The position numbers were made by a program, and so were the translations under genes. A stretch of DNA of 64,000 bases from contig CAIZVZ010000005.1 in NCBI GenBank assembly GCA_903936565.1, positions 38,315-102,314 of the forward strand, written 5' to 3'. The stretch comes from an uncultured bacterium. GTDB taxonomy: Bacteria > Patescibacteriota > Minisyncoccia > Phycocordibacterales > CAIZLB01. The notes beneath the pieces were generated by a model. It saw only the letters and a list, made by a program, of their open reading frames with translations. It had not been told where the DNA came from and did no database searches. Below, piece by piece: positions 30,324 through 35,308 of this stretch; the stretch's first letter is position 1; each line of letters starts with the position of its first letter.

Positions 30324-30394
30324 AATCTAGTGCGCGAGAGAGGACTTGAACCTCCACACCCTTACGGGCACATCCACCTCAAGGATGCTTGTCT
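30311..30394 (-). tRNA. tRNA-Leu (anticodon GAG), type II with long variable arm, CCA not encoded
   Basis: Minus strand reads GCGCGAGTGTTGAAACTGGTAGACAAGCATCCTTGAGGTGGATGTGCCCGTAAGGGTGTGGAGGTTCAAGTCCTCTCTCGCGCA. Anticodon loop is CTTGAGGT. Confidence 0.8.
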
Positions 30395-30440
30395 ACCAGT
30401 TTCAACACTCGCGCATGGCTATATTATGCATAAAACCCAA

Positions 30441-31060: not shown

Positions 31061-31942
31061 CTACGACAGGGATTCGGTAGCTTTTTTGAAATCAGCTGGA
31101 AGTTCAGCCTCAAATTCACTCATTTCTCCACTTACCCCACCTTCATCACTCATTGATGCATCGGATGGTAAAATTAGCTTTAATTTACGTGCATGAAGGG
31201 CTAGACGCTCAAATCCCAGGGCCTTAGGATGATTCTCGGCATACAAACTATCTCCCACCACAGGATGATTTATGGCCTTAAAATGAACCCTGATTTGATG
31301 TGTCCTTCCAGTTAGTGGATGAACCTCAACAAAAGTAAACATTAGGGGTATTTTGGAATTACCCTTGCCAACCATTATGGCACCCCGCTTCATTACAGGA
31401 TCTCCATCGAATCTCTTCAAAACCTTATATTCTGTAACAGCTGGACGAAGCTCTCCTCGAGAAAAACGTTGAGCGCTCCACTTTCTAAAGTCCCCCTTAC
31501 TTCTTCCAATATGTCTATCTATCACACCCTCATCTTCCTTAACAAAACCCCATACAAAAGTATTGTATGTTTTCTTGATTATATGATCCTGAAATTGTTT
31601 TTTGAGTATTTCAAATGCAGCCTGATTTCTAGCTACAACCATAACACCCGAGGTTTCCTTATCTAGTCTGTGCACAATCCCCGGCCTTCTTAGTGTGGTA
31701 GGCTCTTTGTTCGGCCCCCTACCGATTGTCATAGGTTCTCCCACGTCTTTAGTCTCAGGAAATTCTTCCTCAACAAAATCACACAAGGTTTTCTCTTCTG
31801 TCTTTCCGTCGCCATGAACCATAATGCCCGCTGGCTTGTTTATGATCAAAACGTCCTTATCTTGGTATATTATCGATAACATTACCGTTATCATACTTGA
31901 TATTGATATTATTTCAATAATAGTATATATTATGGGAACCAA
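31061..31942 (-). CDS. RluA-family pseudouridine synthase (no S4 domain)
   Basis: …DKDVLIINKPAGIMVHG… and …RPGIVHRLDKETSGVMVVAR… contain the catalytic Asp motif HRLD. Confidence 0.8.
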   Translation of the reverse strand: MVPIIYTIIEIISISSMITVMLSIIYQDKDVLIINKPAGIMVHGDGKTEEKTLCDFVEEEFPETKDVGEPMTIGRGPNKEPTTLRRPGIVHRLDKETSGVMVVARNQAAFEILKKQFQDHIIKKTYNTFVWGFVKEDEGVIDRHIGRSKGDFRKWSAQRFSRGELRPAVTEYKVLKRFDGDPVMKRGAIMVGKGNSKIPLMFTFVEVHPLTGRTHQIRVHFKAINHPVVGDSLYAENHPKALGFERLALHARKLKLILPSDASMSDEGGVSGEMSEFEAELPADFKKATESLS

Positions 31943-31946
31943 ATGA

Positions 31947-32022
31947 GGGCGATTAGCTCAGTTGGTAGAGCAACTCATTTACACTGAGAAGGTCAGGGGT
32001 TCGAGTCCCTTATCGCCCACCA
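31947..32022 (+). tRNA. tRNA-Val (anticodon TAC), CCA encoded
   Basis: GGGCGATTAGCTCAGTTGGTAGAGCAACTCATTTACACTGAGAAGGTCAGGGGTTCGAGTCCCTTATCGCCCACCA. Confidence 0.85.
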
Positions 32023-32027
32023 AAGAA

Positions 32028-32064
32028 AGAAAATAACGCATACGTAAGTGTGCGTTATTTTCTT
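32028..32064 (+). terminator. Putative terminator after tRNA-Val
   Basis: AAATAACGCA-tacgtaagtg-TGCGTTATTT hairpin then tctt. Confidence 0.4.
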
Positions 32065-32299
32065 GATTATTTTATTAGTTATGATTAAATATATCTTGGA
32101 TTCACAGTACGGATCCGCTCTCAACCATAACTACAAAAATCAGTGAACACCCGATCCAAGAAGAACGGTAGCCAACCAAAGAAAACAAGCCTAAAGGGCG
32201 TGAAAAACGGACCAGGCAAACCAGGCTGTCACCCACGTCCAGTTTACAGTGGCAGGGTCACCAACCACAGCAAAGGCTAGGCACCGTTTAACTCAACCC

Positions 32300-32334
32300 C
32301 GGCAGGCGTGGGAATCCCACGCCTGCCTTTTCTT
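32300..32334 (+). terminator. Strong intrinsic terminator ending an unassigned ~270-nt GC-rich plus-strand unit
   Basis: GGCAGGCGTGGG-aatc-CCCACGCCTGCC (12-bp perfect stem) followed by ttttctt. Confidence 0.65.
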
Positions 32335-32370
32335 ATCTAAGATTTTATTTCATTCAGTCCTAAGCGCCCC

Positions 32371-32396
32371 ACAAAAAAAACACCTTGTCGGTGTTT
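32371..32396 (-). terminator. Intrinsic terminator (minus strand)
   Basis: Minus strand reads AACACC-gacaa-GGTGTT followed by TTTTTTTT. Confidence 0.55.
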
Positions 32397-32402
32397 TAAC
32401 GG

Positions 32403-32422
32403 TTGTGCTCTCGGTAGGAATC
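32403..32422. repeat. 20-nt direct repeat of the 3' end (T-arm/acceptor) of the tRNA-Arg gene at 32566..32585
   Basis: ttgtgctctcggtaggaatc occurs identically at 32403-32422 and 32566-32585. Confidence 0.7.
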
Positions 32423-32535
32423 TTCCCCTACGGGGACGGTACAGGTTTCGTATCATGCTCGCTACGCATCGCACAATATACTCAACCTTTTCGATTCCTA
32501 CGCGCAAGCCAAACGGTTGGCTTGCTCTCGAGCCC

Positions 32536-32562
32536 AAAACTAAAAACGCCTTTCGGCGTTTT
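32536..32562 (-). terminator. Intrinsic terminator directly after tRNA-Arg (minus strand)
   Basis: Minus strand reads AACGCC-gaaa-GGCGTT followed by TTTTAGTTTT. Confidence 0.55.
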
Positions 32563-32568
32563 GTTTTG

Positions 32569-32640
32569 TGCTCTCGGTAGGAATCGAACCTACATTAACG
32601 GCTTAGAAGTCCGCAGTTCTATCCATTGAACTACAAGAGC
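32569..32640 (-). tRNA. tRNA-Arg (anticodon TCT) with 4-nt variable loop and one A·G mismatch closing the anticodon stem. CCA not encoded.
   Basis: Minus strand reads GCTCTTGTAGTTCAATGGATAGAACTGCGGACTTCTAAGCCGTTAATGTAGGTTCGATTCCTACCGAGAGCA. Acceptor, D and T arms pair well. Confidence 0.6.
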
Positions 32641-32699
32641 ATGCAAATACAATAGCATATTTTTTAGATTTTACCAGCCCCACCCCATCTAAGTAAAAC

Positions 32700-33080
32700 C
32701 TAGCGCTTAATGTTGGTTGTGGTACCAGAAGTTGTTGAATTTCCCACCATAGAGGTTCCAACGACCGCATTATTATTTTCATAAGTAGCCTTGGTGCTTG
32801 TTGCTACTACCCCCCAAGACACCTCCCTGATTTGATATTTCTCAATTACGCTTTTAATCTCCGCCTCCTTATCCTTTACAGGAACAAAGTCTGTCGCTTC
32901 ACCTGCATCAGACATTAAAGTTGACTGAACGGAAAAATAGAAAAAATAACTCCAAATAAAAACTCCTAGTATTATAGAAAAAGATATAATCATAATTCTT
33001 TGCCAATCCTGAACAGGTCGACTGCCGAATATATACATATTCTTTAATTTACTTCCAAATTGTCCTAGTTCTATGTTCAT
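32700..33080 (-). CDS. Small single-TM protein at the distal end of the pilMNO cluster (PilP-like position), unknown function
   Basis: 126 aa with one TM, then a soluble S/T-rich C-terminus. Co-oriented and abutting pilO. Confidence 0.35.
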   Translation of the reverse strand: MNIELGQFGSKLKNMYIFGSRPVQDWQRIMIISFSIILGVFIWSYFFYFSVQSTLMSDAGEATDFVPVKDKEAEIKSVIEKYQIREVSWGVVATSTKATYENNNAVVGTSMVGNSTTSGTTTNIKR

Positions 33081-33081
33081 A

Positions 33082-33627
33082 TTATTTTTCTTTGACTACT
33101 AATATTTGTAAATCTAACTGTTGGGAACTCGTCGCAGTCTGCAGTCCACCGACTTTTGCAGTAGAATAACTTTTTATCTTTATATTAAAAGGCAGAGATT
33201 CAACTTTATCAACAAAATTTGAGACTGATAACTTGGTACCAGAAATACTTTCCTTTATACTTAAATATTCTTTATTAAACTTAGATAAATTACCGTCCTG
33301 TACTATCTCAATGGCATTTGTACTGAATGTTAAATTGTTTAATGTTGCCAAATCTTCTATCGTCTGTACAAACTTTATAGAACCTTCATTATCAACTGGA
33401 ACAATGTACTTCATCAAATCTGCATTTCTTGCGTCTGCATTCTGAGCAACTCTCTTTATGGAATTCAGGCTATCTTCCTCCTTTTTTAAATCATTAGATT
33501 TCTTATAAATACTTACCAAATCTCCTCCCATACCCCCAACATAAACCACAGCAAAACAATATCCAGAAATAGATGCTAGGGCAAGTATTATCGATATTAT
33601 TAATGTGTAGAAAGTTTTTTTAGTCAT
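33082..33627 (-). CDS. pilO: Type IV pilus assembly protein PilO-like
   Basis: 181 aa, N-terminal TM, coiled-coil then a ferredoxin-like periplasmic domain. Position after pilM/pilN. Confidence 0.5.
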   Translation of the reverse strand: MTKKTFYTLIISIILALASISGYCFAVVYVGGMGGDLVSIYKKSNDLKKEEDSLNSIKRVAQNADARNADLMKYIVPVDNEGSIKFVQTIEDLATLNNLTFSTNAIEIVQDGNLSKFNKEYLSIKESISGTKLSVSNFVDKVESLPFNIKIKSYSTAKVGGLQTATSSQQLDLQILVVKEK

Positions 33628-33630
33628 TGT

Positions 33631-34182
33631 CTATTTTTTTACAGACTTAATTAAATTAAAATTAAATGAAAAACTTAAATCTTTCTTTCTTGTAAAGCTT
33701 GTAATTGGTATATTTATACTTGTAAATTCTGGGTTTGAATTAATTTTCTTCTGTAATTCTATTAATTTGTCTCTATCTGGAGCAACACCACTTATGCTAA
33801 TTGAAGCACTGTTATCATCAATCAATCCATAGGTGTATCTATCAATATAAACCCCCTCTGGTAAGCTGTTTAAAATCTTATTATATGCCTCTTTGGGGGA
33901 TAATATATTTATAGATGTTTTAAGAGCTTCCAAACTTGAATTGACTAACTTAATTTTATCTTGAAAGTTTTGATCCTTTAATACCTGAACGGACCTTTCT
34001 TTTATTTGGTTCTCGCTCTTAATTATATTCACCCTACCTACAGCAGATAGATAACTCGGAAGAAGGCAAGCTAACCCAACCAAAGATATAAACACAATAA
34101 TCCAACAAATCACAATAACAAGCCTCATTTTATACTCTTTGATAACCTTTTTCTTTTGTGATTCTGATAATAGGTGTAACAT
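33631..34182 (-). CDS. pilN: Type IV pilus assembly protein PilN-like
   Basis: 183 aa, short cytoplasmic N-terminus (binds PilM), single TM, periplasmic coiled-coil. Gene order M-N-O. Confidence 0.5.
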   Translation of the reverse strand: MLHLLSESQKKKVIKEYKMRLVIVICWIIVFISLVGLACLLPSYLSAVGRVNIIKSENQIKERSVQVLKDQNFQDKIKLVNSSLEALKTSINILSPKEAYNKILNSLPEGVYIDRYTYGLIDDNSASISISGVAPDRDKLIELQKKINSNPEFTSINIPITSFTRKKDLSFSFNFNLIKSVKK

Positions 34183-34186
34183 CTTT

Positions 34187-35308
34187 TTATTGATCTTTTA
34201 ATAAAGCCAGGCCAAAAGCAGTACCATACCCCAAAGATTCTCGCATGGAAATCTCTGGTATTTCATTCTCAAACGATAGAATGTTAGTCCAAACATTCGC
34301 AACCTCAACCGGAGTCTTTAGTGATATTGCGAGGAAGTCTCTAAAACCAACAACACCAGCTTCCTTTCCCGCTATTAATATCTTCTTGACTCCCGCTGAT
34401 GAATTACCGTTATTTGGTAAACCAGAAACCGCATCAACATTACTCTTAAAATTATTTATACTATTCCAGTAAATAAACACCTTTCTAATTTCCTCGACCA
34501 ACAAATTAGCAGTTGACATCAACGCATTAGAAACGGCCTCATTACCAATGTCTCGTGAAAAACCCTTCTCGAACTTTATTGAAACAGCAGCATCTTCATC
34601 GAGGGACGCACCTTTCATAATGGCGTTAGTAAAATCTTCGGATCCAATAGCGATCGTGGAGGTAAACTGAACAGCCTCATCGTTCACAACCGACAAGACA
34701 GTACTCTTGTGACTAATGTTAACAATGAAATAATTTTCTCTGTCCCCTTTTTTGATAATAGCTCGAGATAATGCTTGGTTTTCAATAAGAAAGGAAATTG
34801 GAAACATTCCGCAAGACTCAAACAACTCAATATATTCATTTATCACAACAACTGGCACAACAGAGACGGCCAAAAATTGCATACCCGTACTCTCATTTTT
34901 CTTTATTCTATGATAATCAAAAATTGCATCATCTAACGATAATGGCACATTTTCTTCAAGGTGCATCTCTATTCTATTTCTAATTTCTTCTTTTGTTCCA
35001 TCGACCACCTCGATAGTGAACAGATAAGCCTTCTCTTCTGGAATAGATATCTCTACAAACTTTAACTTATATTTTTTTTGAATCTTTTTTAATATATCTA
35101 TTAGATTTTTATTAGACAACAGTGATTCATTCGGCAAAATCGGTGATTCCAACTTTTCCTCGGTACAACATTTTAATTTTAACCCCCTAGCAGTTCTAAT
35201 AATTTCAGCCATATGAACAGCGGAGGAGCTGATATCAAAACCAGCATGGGACATTTCTAGATAGTGCGAAGTTGGAAAATATTTATTTAATGTATCTAGG
35301 TACGACAT
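34187..35308 (-). CDS. pilM: Type IV pilus assembly protein PilM (actin-like ATPase fold)
   Basis: 373 aa. Architecture and motifs of the FtsA/PilM family (…ILIAGKEAGVVGF… …GYGTAFGLALL…). Heads the pilMNO cluster. Confidence 0.65.
   Translation of the reverse strand: MSYLDTLNKYFPTSHYLEMSHAGFDISSSAVHMAEIIRTARGLKLKCCTEEKLESPILPNESLLSNKNLIDILKKIQKKYKLKFVEISIPEEKAYLFTIEVVDGTKEEIRNRIEMHLEENVPLSLDDAIFDYHRIKKNESTGMQFLAVSVVPVVVINEYIELFESCGMFPISFLIENQALSRAIIKKGDRENYFIVNISHKSTVLSVVNDEAVQFTSTIAIGSEDFTNAIMKGASLDEDAAVSIKFEKGFSRDIGNEAVSNALMSTANLLVEEIRKVFIYWNSINNFKSNVDAVSGLPNNGNSSAGVKKILIAGKEAGVVGFRDFLAISLKTPVEVANVWTNILSFENEIPEISMRESLGYGTAFGLALLKDQ

Follow-up and report, generated by a model that had tools for sequence, protein, structure and literature searches.

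The ORF-free island beside the tRNA-Val gene in our window (the whole stretch of DNA analysed, 64,000 nucleotides in length) carries, on its minus strand, a member of a family of structured units whose arms copy and complement the end of the neighbouring tRNA. The family is widespread in Patescibacteria-type genomes and apparently undescribed. An earlier note on this DNA had considered the duplication of the tRNA-Arg 3' end to be meaningful, and this is correct. The best explanation of the island as a whole, in which we place about even confidence, is that the family unit is a read-through RNA acting as a tRNA-specific adaptor, decoy or antisense RNA, while the 270-nt stretch next to it on the plus strand is an unrelated spacer. 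Among the two readings offered in the earlier note, an integration scar and tRNA-derived regulatory RNAs, the latter comes closer.

Details of the features of the island are presented in Table 1. As described before, the island is GC-rich and ORF-free: GC content is about 50% (0.48-0.50 over 32100-32600 vs about 0.30-0.42 in the flanks) and the ORFs present are short, overlapping and not credible. The minus-strand tRNA-Arg(TCT) with its own terminator and the 12-bp-stem terminator at the end of the 270-nt stretch could both be confirmed. The terminator-like hairpins seen earlier are real, their number being four and not three. Search of the island with Rfam 15 cmscan (gathering thresholds for the whole window and E <= 10 for 31900-32750) identified only tRNAs and no standard family for the 270-nt unit. 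The repeat of the tRNA 3' end is indeed a 20-nt exact copy (TTGTGCTCTCGGTAGGAATC, chance expectation 0 matches), although its coordinates had been given about 6 nt off; the two copies are located at 32403-32422 and 32566-32585. The latter comprises the tRNA-Arg 3' end with two trailer bases and is the template for both arms of the minus-strand unit. Spacing between the two copies is 143 nt, without an ORF. In the window and 20 genome loci, extra copies of a tRNA 3' end are seen only for Arg(TCT) and Val(TAC), at this one locus.

Table 1. Features of the tRNA-Val/tRNA-Arg island (window positions).
Feature	Position	Strand	Basis and remarks
tRNA-Val(TAC)	31947-32022	+	ARAGORN; Rfam tRNA 70.2 bits; left edge of the island
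Terminator-like hairpin of tRNA-Val	32027-32064	+	17 pairs, AT-rich
Lineage-specific filler, body of the 270-nt unit of the earlier note	32065-32300	none assigned	Plus strand A/C-rich, unconserved
Strong intrinsic terminator	32301-32334 (hairpin 32301-32327)	+	12-bp stem GGCAGGCGTGGG/CCCACGCCTGCC, 10/12 pairs G-C, then T-run
Terminator-like hairpin just past the 3' end of the minus-strand unit	32377-32397	-	
Whole tRNA-tail-matched structured unit	32401-32539	-	Family member by covariance model R2
3' arm	32403-32422	-	Exact 20-nt copy of tRNA-Arg positions 57-73 + CAA
Hairpin B (CCCC-GUA-GGGG)	32423-32437	-	Conserved GUA triloop; folding and alignments
Junction motif UGUAC	32439-32443	-	Invariant in the first alignment and in the 20-sequence alignment
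Hairpin A	32443-32488	-	Conserved lower stem with tandem G·A and UAU/AUA pairs; apex variable
Motif GAAAAG	32487-32492	-	Conserved; GAA complementary to UUC of the tRNA T-loop
5' arm, T part GUAGGAAUC	32493-32501	-	Complement of T-loop 57-60 and T-stem 3' strand
P2, 9-bp hairpin	32504-32525	-	Exactly at the acceptor/T-stem junction; folding, alignments
5' arm, acceptor part GCUCGAG + UUUUGG leader	32527-32539	-	Leader pairs with trailer
Native terminator of tRNA-Arg	32543-32562	-	Identical hairpin in relatives without the unit
tRNA-Arg(TCT)	32568-32640	-	ARAGORN, Rfam cmscan

The minus-strand unit starts 28 nt past tRNA-Arg(TCT), both being on the minus strand. Its earlier description as an RNA-like entity of ~135 nt with its own terminator agrees with its folding (MFE -54.3 kcal/mol, z = -4.4) and with the hairpin located past its 3' end. 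The 3' arm spans the 3' part of the T-loop, the 3' strands of the T-stem and the acceptor, the discriminator and the trailer. In the 5' arm, 9/9 positions of the T part and 5/7 of the acceptor part (with tandem G·A) are paired, and this arm is predicted to form a duplex of -23.3 kcal/mol with the tRNA end, compared to -24.2 kcal/mol with the 3' arm of the unit itself. In comparison to a cloverleaf, the unit contains one 9-bp hairpin in place of positions 8-48 and a three-way junction in place of the T-loop, and no canonical tRNA could be identified at 32401-32539 by ARAGORN or by cmscan at E <= 10. No promoter of its own was found. The copy at the related locus L001 is 93% identical to that of the window, with compensatory changes (among them A-U to G-C in P2), while the surrounding spacer is unalignable, and therefore we take the unit to be under selection. 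As candidates for the junction, we rejected hammerhead and other small ribozymes, group II domain V and group I introns, since the junctions do not fit by eye and no model matches; the group I introns described in Patescibacteria reside at position 35/36 and are unrelated to the units (PMC13011429).

Members of the family were collected by a pattern scan of metagenomes, which gave 41 loci, followed by covariance models R1 and R2; about 42 full-length matches of 60-116 bits were obtained in metagenomes. The homologous units number about 40 in total and the family scores span 60-134 bits, which excludes chance convergence of the core. Model R2 was built from 38 metagenome units, without the window copy or its close relatives, and matches 32401-32539 of the minus strand over its full length with 112 bits (E = 4.6e-26). 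A weak covariance-model match in L016 was rejected because it lies inside a coding region. Nearly all units are present directly downstream, on the same strand, of a tRNA (at least 13 anticodons) or tmRNA gene. Host genes assigned by ARAGORN are those for Pro, Glu, Gln, Leu (three anticodons), Arg (two), Val, Ile, Lys and Asp, and tmRNA. The units are about 125-170 nt in length and start 2-48 nt past the gene, usually just past its terminator. Terminators are found after the units as well; since a terminator-like hairpin separates most units from their tRNA, transcription of most of them would need read-through. Rfam 15 at E <= 1 on nine other unit-bearing contigs gave only tRNA, tmRNA and noise, and no account of such elements was found in full-text literature.

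The two arms vary from unit to unit according to the tRNA next to them. In the 3' arm, the neighbouring tRNA is repeated in sense orientation, beginning in the T-loop (54-57), continuing over the acceptor 3' strand and the discriminator and ending a few bases into the trailer; exact blocks of 17-26 nt are common to the unit and the upstream tRNA in about 18 units. The left edge of this identity is always inside the T-loop, at positions 54-57, in tmRNA too. The 5' arm is the Watson-Crick complement of the segment repeated in the 3' arm. P2 interrupts it precisely where acceptor and T-stem meet, and it runs on into a leader whose GUG and U-run pair with CAC and an A-run. The arm is a true complement and no copy of the tRNA 5' strand, as seen for example in L047, where it has an A opposite U71 while the tRNA itself has G2·U71. 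Between the variable arms lie constant parts, namely P2 (usual, 9 bp), GAAAAG, hairpin A, UGUAC and hairpin B with its GUA loop, and the core retains 88-92% identity between units on different tRNA types. The terminator is part of the duplication in the window, in L002 and in the tandem arrays, but was discarded as a general feature of it. A mature, CCA-bearing tRNA as the source of the 3' arm is likewise unsupported, most units carrying the genomic ACAA; CCA is present in the unit and absent from the gene in three units, and the reverse is seen in one.

Covariation in the family alignment is strong and strand-specific. Paired cells amount to 87.9%, compared to 35-49% in slid controls, with changes on both sides in 40/42 pairs, and in P2 96% of the cells are paired. 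P2, the T-extension helix and both hairpins (A and B) are found again in an independent 20-sequence alignment (MAFFT + RNAalifold), where 25/31 pairs are compensatory. Wobble pairs are asymmetric, G·U outnumbering A·C by 59 to 19 overall and by 29 to 0 in P2 and the T-extension helix. This shows a structure selected as a single strand, on the tRNA-sense strand. For the co-transcript of the window tRNA-Arg and its unit, the predicted MFE structure is a strand-swapped fold (-100 kcal/mol, z = -7.2). The same fold is the predicted MFE in 16-17/21 loci, 3-27 kcal/mol below the modular sum, as a purely thermodynamic prediction which ignores co-transcriptional folding and tRNA tertiary structure. 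Against a role as RNA, G·T wobble on one strand would be tolerable in folded single-stranded DNA as well.

In the RNA reading that we favour, the unit would be transcribed by read-through of the leaky tRNA terminator. On its own it would close into a mimic of the acceptor/T-helix of its own tRNA, capped by the conserved three-way junction, which is a probable site for a trans-acting factor. In the co-transcript, the 5' half of the unit would instead sequester the 3' third of the tRNA, the UUC of the T-loop included, and the distal arm would then complete the tRNA body; in the resulting strand-swapped fold the element would be a self-contained domain nested in the T-loop. From this mimicry and from the sequestration of the tRNA 3' third, it seems plausible that the unit acts as an adaptor, decoy or antisense RNA against the 3' third of one tRNA. 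Turnover of copies may take place by recombination via the repeated tRNA end and the core that the units have in common. If the RNA reading is correct, one would expect transcripts that read through the terminator, strand-swapped folds and a partner that binds the core.

YrlA Y RNAs, the tRNA-like domain of tmRNA and permuted tmRNA are, as the unit would be, small structured RNAs mimicking the acceptor/T-arm stack. Matches to Rfam tmRNA_permuted below threshold (23-27 bits) extend over the 3' end of tmRNA and the unit's 5' arm, as expected from a geometry that resembles the permuted acceptor stem. However, in contrast to these RNAs, the unit has no T-loop, its ends are closed by leader-trailer pairing with no free NCCA end, its mimic is matched in sequence to the adjacent tRNA and not generic, no Rfam match exceeds the threshold, and, in contrast to tmRNA, no SmpB context is seen around the units. 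A complement of at least 18 3'-terminal nucleotides of one tRNA, reaching into the T-loop, is also a feature of LTR primer-binding sites, and tRF-3 fragments have a span corresponding to the 3' arm. Here, in contrast, there is neither a reverse transcriptase nor a retroelement, the tails are mostly genomic ACAA and not mature CCA, and the complement, unlike a primer-binding site, stands at the 5' end of a small RNA predicted to be closed.

The presence of the unit varies between related loci. L003 and L070-L074 are empty, L002 carries only a Val unit, L001 both, and the window only the Arg unit; since close relatives are without the unit or have the Val version, copies are gained and lost quickly. 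Presence is patchy even where the flanking protein is 92-95% identical. Tandem arrays occur in L052, L029/L032, L066 and L068, and in L066, L068 and L052 every unit has a separate 3'-end copy and terminator ahead of it. Chimeras are seen on comparing L046 with L057, and the distal arm is truncated in about 10/30 copies. Such arrays, chimeras and truncated copies resemble the behaviour of selfish repeats and, like the patchy presence, speak against the RNA reading.

The main rival, unlikely on balance but a real possibility, is that the unit is a mobile, ORF-less cassette acting as folded single-stranded DNA. The element would then comprise the 5' arm, P2 and core together with the terminator and a spare tRNA 3' third located ahead of them. 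As a single strand, this spare third would pair with the 5' arm, and the duplex would mimic the double-stranded T-loop/acceptor end of the tRNA gene. A recombinase encoded elsewhere would exchange the duplex, at the T-loop, for the corresponding part of a tRNA or tmRNA gene, as for attC or CTX-phage/dif, leaving the distal 3' arm as the displaced original tRNA end. The gain and loss among close relatives, the arrays with a 3'-end copy and terminator ahead of each unit, the invariable T-loop edge of identity and the self-contained folding of the inserted segment are all consistent with such a cassette. So are loci such as L039 and L047, in which the 5' arm still pairs well with the tRNA-proximal copy (-36.7 and -31.7 kcal/mol) where the distal arm has decayed (-15.9 and -17.0 kcal/mol), and L002, whose distal terminator is similar to the one native terminator present at the empty site L071. 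In the window and L060, however, it is the tRNA-proximal terminator that matches the empty sites of relatives. A cassette with the 3' third of one tRNA would destroy other tRNA types, yet similar cores are present on at least 12 types. Moreover, the unit tails usually match the gene (ACAA), with no sign of an RNA-copied origin. No recombinase or other gene is conserved near the units, where the neighbours in 38 loci are only syntenic housekeeping or membrane genes with no recurrent protein; a partner protein, as the RNA reading would require, is likewise not encoded there. Two pattern scans of viral contigs in IMG/VR gave 0 and 8 matches, all 8 of which are noise by the covariance model. Comparison of empty and filled tRNA-Leu(GAG) sites was uninformative, as their flanks differ.

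The resemblance of the unit to attC and to the CTX-phage attP (XerCD) consists in an imperfect palindrome, structure kept over sequence, strand asymmetry, tandem cassette-like arrays at one site and a folded stem that reproduces a double-stranded target. At the units, the closing palindrome, the arrays and a T-loop GTTC near the identity boundary can be seen. Unlike those sites, the unit has a three-way junction with a branch hairpin; no R/L boxes were seen, and no R-box consensus or integrase was found in the flanks available. The three-way junction, tandem G·A and triloops are also far more elaborate than known folded-DNA recombination sites. MITEs and REPINs are, like the units, short, non-coding, multi-copy, intergenic and patchy, with inverted-repeat ends and some decaying copies. 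However, the inverted repeats of the units vary by copy, being those of the neighbouring tRNA 3' end, and the units are confined to positions past a tRNA or tmRNA gene of the same orientation. An identity with MITEs or REPINs was rejected, as the arms differ between copies and no constant terminal repeats run through the family.

Considerably more speculative, and rather doubtful in our view, is a reading of the units as programmable, tRNA-specific guides or adaptors, in which a constant scaffold would serve one effector encoded elsewhere and exchangeable arms would address the 3' third of one tRNA or tmRNA, or its gene. The scaffold would be P2 and the three-way-junction core with its repeated UGUA/GUA motifs, binding an effector protein, and the universal pairing of T-loop UUC with GAA would provide a fixed anchor. 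If true, this would amount to RNA-guided tRNA processing, surveillance, tail-nuclease protection or targeted recombination in minimal-genome bacteria.

It is very improbable that the unit is a decaying, functionless duplicate of a tRNA gene with arms left over from a second tRNA-Arg. The acceptor and T-stem segments are ordered as in a tRNA, P2 lies exactly at the 7/49 junction and some copies are clearly decaying. However, units from unrelated tRNAs have in common a conserved, covarying P2 and core, and the family-wide conservation of the core largely refutes a pseudo-tRNA. In addition, the 5' strand is an optimised complement and not a copy of the tRNA 5' strand, the pairing reaches past the tRNA into leader and trailer and across T-loop 57-60, and the changes between the window and L001 copies are compensatory.

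Integrases that target the T-loop typically leave a direct repeat which begins in this loop and extends to the 3' end of the tRNA. The units further share with the attL/attR of tRNA-targeting elements a repeat running past the 3' end, tmRNA targets and a variable presence in relatives. A classical scar, in which a prophage or island at tRNA-Arg was later deleted to leave attL, a remnant and attR, would account for the 20-nt repeat, but we regard it as hardly credible: only 143 nt lie between the repeats and they hold a covarying, conserved module (~120 nt) with a 5' part purpose-built to complement the 3' end of the tRNA, the same module with different repeats recurs behind many other tRNAs (at least 13 anticodons) and tmRNA, never with an integrase or cargo, the family is absent from the viral contigs of IMG/VR, and the tRNA-proximal terminator is the same hairpin sequence as at unoccupied sites of relatives.

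If the family is what it appears to be, Patescibacteria, which make up a large but little understood portion of the bacterial tree, carry a common class of structured elements missed by standard annotation, in which Rfam 15 finds nothing. Its design rule is unusual, one conserved core being joined to arms that reproduce the 3' third of the upstream tRNA or tmRNA and also pair with it. This is the logic of a guide/adaptor RNA or of a target-mimicking mobile cassette, neither of which is known, to our knowledge, for bacterial tRNA 3' ends. The units would also provide access to the processing, protection or exploitation of tRNA genes in bacteria with minimal genomes and would account for the hypervariable tRNA-adjacent spacers in these metagenome-assembled genomes. 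The covariance model is ready for use in annotation.

The 270-nt plus-strand stretch (32065-32334) is an unrelated, unconserved spacer ending in a terminator. It had been proposed as a discrete structured RNA, possibly 6S, SRP, RNase P or tmRNA, but an unrecognised housekeeping or regulatory RNA is very unlikely here. The stretch is ORF-free, has GC above that of the flanks and ends in a strong terminator, and its folding z goes from -2.9 to -4.9 when the terminator is included. However, no Rfam family matches it even at E <= 10, ARAGORN reports no tmRNA, and no similar sequence or homologue was found in the rest of the window, in the compared loci or, by BLAST, in phages and plasmids. It is missing from 8/8 related loci (L001-L003, L070-L074), and in several of these only 70-220 bp lie between the two tRNAs.

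The unit that follows tRNA-Arg(TCT) in the window belongs to a widespread, modular and new family of structured elements, in which a constant core (GAAAAG, hairpin A, UGUAC and hairpin B with a GUA loop) is combined with arms matched to the 3' third of the adjacent tRNA; this much is firmly shown. It lies in a stretch of ~545 bp between tRNA-Val(TAC) and tRNA-Arg(TCT) which is without a credible ORF and has a GC content of 0.48-0.50 as compared to ~0.30-0.42 in the flanks. A consensus scan called four terminator-like hairpins in this island, and an exact 20-nt repeat is present where none is expected by chance. Since the ORF-free, GC-rich island with its hairpins and exact repeat is confirmed, the physical observation of the earlier note stands, with the correction that the repeat had been placed ~6 nt off. 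Rfam 15 at gathering thresholds detected only tRNAs in the whole window, its search of 31900-32750 at E <= 10 returned the two tRNAs and noise, and ARAGORN found no tmRNA in the window. Neither of the two putative units of the island thus matches an Rfam 15 family, even at E <= 10.

Positions of features in and around the island (window coordinates)
Feature	Position	Strand	Called by
tRNA-Leu(GAG)	30330-30414	-	ARAGORN
tRNA-Val(TAC)	31947-32022	+	ARAGORN, Rfam
Terminator-like hairpin after tRNA-Val	32027-32064	+	consensus scan
270-nt stretch	32065-32334	+	
Terminator-like hairpin, 12 pairs (10 G-C), then T-run	32301-32327	+	consensus scan
Terminator-like hairpin	32397-32377	-	consensus scan
Arg unit	32401-32539	-	
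20-nt repeat, first copy	32403-32422		
UGUA/GUA motif	32429-32431	-	
UGUA/GUA motif	32439-32443	-	
Terminator-like hairpin after tRNA-Arg	32562-32543	-	consensus scan
20-nt repeat, second copy	32566-32585		
tRNA-Arg(TCT)	32568-32640	-	ARAGORN, Rfam
Pilus-assembly-type cluster	32700-35308	-	Pfam (PilM_2, faint PilN)

Close relatives were retrieved through the flanking RluA-type pseudouridine synthase gene, which yielded three loci with 92-95% amino-acid identity and, in addition, Patescibacteria/Parcubacteria MAGs with <=44%; in five additional related loci the protein is 82-85% identical. The locus is polymorphic among these relatives. L003, L070 and L071-L074 carry one or two terminators only between the two tRNA genes, L002 has a Val unit whose last 21 nt copy the tRNA-Val 3' end exactly and nothing after tRNA-Arg, L001 has both a Val unit and an Arg unit, the latter 93% identical to that of the window, and the window has the Arg unit only together with the 270-nt stretch. 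The tRNA-Arg terminator hairpin (AAAACGCCGAAAGGCG...) of the empty L070 site is identical to the one beside the tRNA in both the window and L001.

MAFFT alignment of four units revealed the common motifs GAAAAG.TT...TATATT and AAA..TGTAC.G and a GTA loop. All four adopt one architecture, consisting of an acceptor-like stem, a 9-bp hairpin (P2), an extended T-stem (the T-stem plus T-loop positions 57-60, all paired), a three-way junction with hairpins A and B, and the tRNA 3' strand. The Val and Arg units are homologous. P2 and hairpin B of the Val and Arg versions have the same shape with wholly different sequence, and the P2 hairpins of the window and L001 differ by a compensatory change, A-U to G-C. 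An identical 25-nt hairpin-containing mini-insert (YGATTCAGYAGAATCRCCTACTGGG) is present at L001:5681-5705 (-), in the hairpin-B loop of the Val unit, and at L060:496-520 (-), between the T-loop remnant and T-stem 3' strand of the orthologous unit, and looks like a tiny insertion that landed at two separate positions.

The 3' arm of ~18 units has an exact block of 17-26 nt in common with the upstream tRNA, which begins at T-loop positions 54-57 and extends past the discriminator into the trailer; unit tails are mostly genomic ACAA and not mature CCA. The 5' arm is a Watson-Crick complement of the same stretch rather than a copy of the tRNA 5' strand, as seen in L047, where it has A opposite U71 while the tRNA has G2·U71. 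It reaches beyond the tRNA, with GUG pairing to C72-A73-C74 and a U-run pairing to the A-rich trailer, and the invariant GAAAAG contains a GAA complementary to the universal T-loop UUC. P2 splits the 5' arm exactly at the acceptor/T junction; L050, which is without P2, has a continuous 18-nt complement. The distal (3') arm is truncated, interrupted or mutated in ~10 units, and in such cases pairing of the 5' arm with the 3' end of the tRNA itself is still strong (-36.7 kcal/mol as compared to -15.9 with the distal arm in L039; -31.7 as compared to -17.0 in L047).

A degenerate pattern derived from the shared core identified 41 metagenome loci from lakes and groundwater, and the covariance model R1 detected ~42 full-length copies (60-116 bits) along with weaker divergent ones. 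With R2, a covariance model built from metagenome copies only, the window unit reaches 112 bits, and 116-134 bits were obtained for the L001/L002 units. Nearly every copy is located 2-48 nt downstream of a tRNA or tmRNA on the same strand (ARAGORN), the tRNAs being Pro-TGG, Glu-CTC, Gln-CTG, Leu-TAA/TAG/GAG, Arg-TCT/GCG, Val-TAC, Ile-GAT, Lys-CTT and Asp-GTC. Copies form tandem arrays in L052, L029/L032, L066, L068 and L041, and the 64-kb window, with seven tRNAs, contains one copy only. No copy was found in IMG/VR viral contigs, and proteins near units include no recurring family beyond local synteny.

"Orphan" copies are preceded by sequence resembling a tRNA 3' end without an ARAGORN call. 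Two of them follow a common sequence of ~60 nt (L043:470-531 and L069:1-71), ...TTCGAAAAAAGTTCGAGCAAA(C/G)TGTA(G/T)AATTA(G/C)AGCAC..., with an acceptor-3'-end-like terminus and likewise no call, which may be an unusual tRNA, or else a second type of element that bears a tRNA end. Uncalled T-arm/acceptor-like 3' ends (GTGGGTTCAAATCCCATCGTCCGCGCA) are also seen at L061:8100-8170, L040:270-330 and L061:9960-10040, and the motif GGTTCTAAC(G/A)TCGT(T/C)CAC recurs upstream of units; these ends and motifs may belong to intron-containing tRNA genes, which have been reported for Patescibacteria (PMC13011429). At L055:815-938 and L059:513-651, Rfam tmRNA_permuted gives sub-threshold matches (23-27 bits; gathering score 47) that cover both the 3' end of a normal tmRNA gene and, in the unit after it, the 5' arm, a geometry resembling the split acceptor stem of two-piece tmRNA. 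After tRNA-Leu(GAG) at L052:500-598 (-), a remnant (GCGAGAGAGGACT) complementary to the T-stem and acceptor 3' strand of that tRNA, with no core following, may be a decayed unit.

In the model-fitted alignment 87.9% of cells are paired, as compared to 35-49% with slid partners, P2 is 96% paired and 40 of 42 pairs are changed on both sides. P2, the T-extension helix and hairpins A and B were also recovered from a model-independent alignment of 20 units (MAFFT and RNAalifold), in which 25 of 31 pairs are compensatory. G·U wobbles far exceed A·C (59 versus 19; 29 versus 0 in P2 and the T-extension helix), and therefore it is the tRNA-sense strand that folds, as RNA or single-stranded DNA. Hairpin A has conserved tandem G·A positions. 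UGUA/GUA occurs up to three times per unit across the family, at the junction UGUAC, in the hairpin-B triloop GUA and at some hairpin-A apices (GAAUGUAAUC), and this recurrence suggests a putative multivalent protein-binding motif.

Cores are 88-92% identical between units on different tRNA types in a sample biased by the search pattern. In L046, the 5' half of one unit is continuous with the 3' half of the L057 Val unit and the flank of the latter, which shows that recombination has taken place through the shared core. A perfect 3' arm is combined with an unmatched acceptor 5' arm in L057 and L052.

When tRNA-Arg, its terminator and the unit are folded together (245 nt), the predicted MFE is -100 kcal/mol (z = -7.2). 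In this predicted fold the distal arm is paired with two strands of the tRNA, the 5' acceptor strand and the 5' strand of the T-stem, while the T-loop and 3' strand of the tRNA pair with the 5' arm and GAA of the unit, through the terminator hairpin. Such a strand-swapped fold is the predicted MFE in 16-17 of 21 loci, where it lies 3-27 kcal/mol lower than the separate folds added together. As a prediction only, the tRNA 3' third, terminator, 5' arm and core would make up a self-contained domain, nested within the T-loop of a tRNA that the distal arm would complete.

We prefer, at roughly even chances, a reading in which the unit is an RNA. Read-through of the tRNA terminator would produce it, it would target or imitate the 3' third of the tRNA that it follows, and the conserved junction would be a putative binding site for a trans factor. 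This is preferred because the motifs at the junction resemble those of RNAs, the fold is specific to the tRNA-sense strand, and a terminator of its own follows each unit. A further reason is that purifying selection, with compensatory changes, acts on the window and L001 copies, while the spacer around them has wholly turned over. The main rival, a non-autonomous cassette recombining as folded single-stranded DNA at the T-loop, accounts better than the RNA reading for patchy gain and loss, arrays with one terminator per unit, the T-loop boundary of tRNA identity and frequent decay of the distal arm. However, there is no candidate recombinase and one core over many tRNA types is hard to explain in this way, and we consider the cassette the less probable of the two. 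An integration scar in simple form, as proposed in the earlier note, is contradicted by the conserved core across the family, which equally contradicts a decaying tRNA duplicate. Searches of Rfam 15 and of full-text literature returned no description of such elements, which is no proof that there is none. Among the nearest known systems, att duplications at tRNA genes, YrlA and tmRNA tRNA-like domains, retroviral primer-binding sites and MITEs/REPINs each have one or two features in common with the units but differ in defining ones, as folded attC/CTX sites probably do too.

The 270-nt plus-strand stretch had been considered a possible housekeeping ncRNA, an assignment that its lack of any Rfam match (E <= 10) and its absence from all eight related loci do not support. 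Nothing similar was found in the window, the collected loci, phages or plasmids. It ends in a genuine strong terminator, and its folding z changes from -4.9 with the terminator to -2.9 without. The stretch is best described as a lineage-specific spacer; the two tRNA genes that enclose it are convergent and highly conserved, but the gap between them is hypervariable in every relative examined. In L001, the spacer that separates the Val from the Arg unit (L001:5400-5655, -) is unrelated to the 270-nt stretch and holds a long near-perfect hairpin (AAAACTCCGCTTCTATTGAATG...CATTCAATAGAAGCGGAGTTTT). Elsewhere in the window, the Rfam gathering-threshold scan omits tRNA-Leu(GAG) and lists the other six tRNAs. 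The pilus-assembly-type cluster adjoining the island fits a competence or type IV pilus locus of Patescibacteria.
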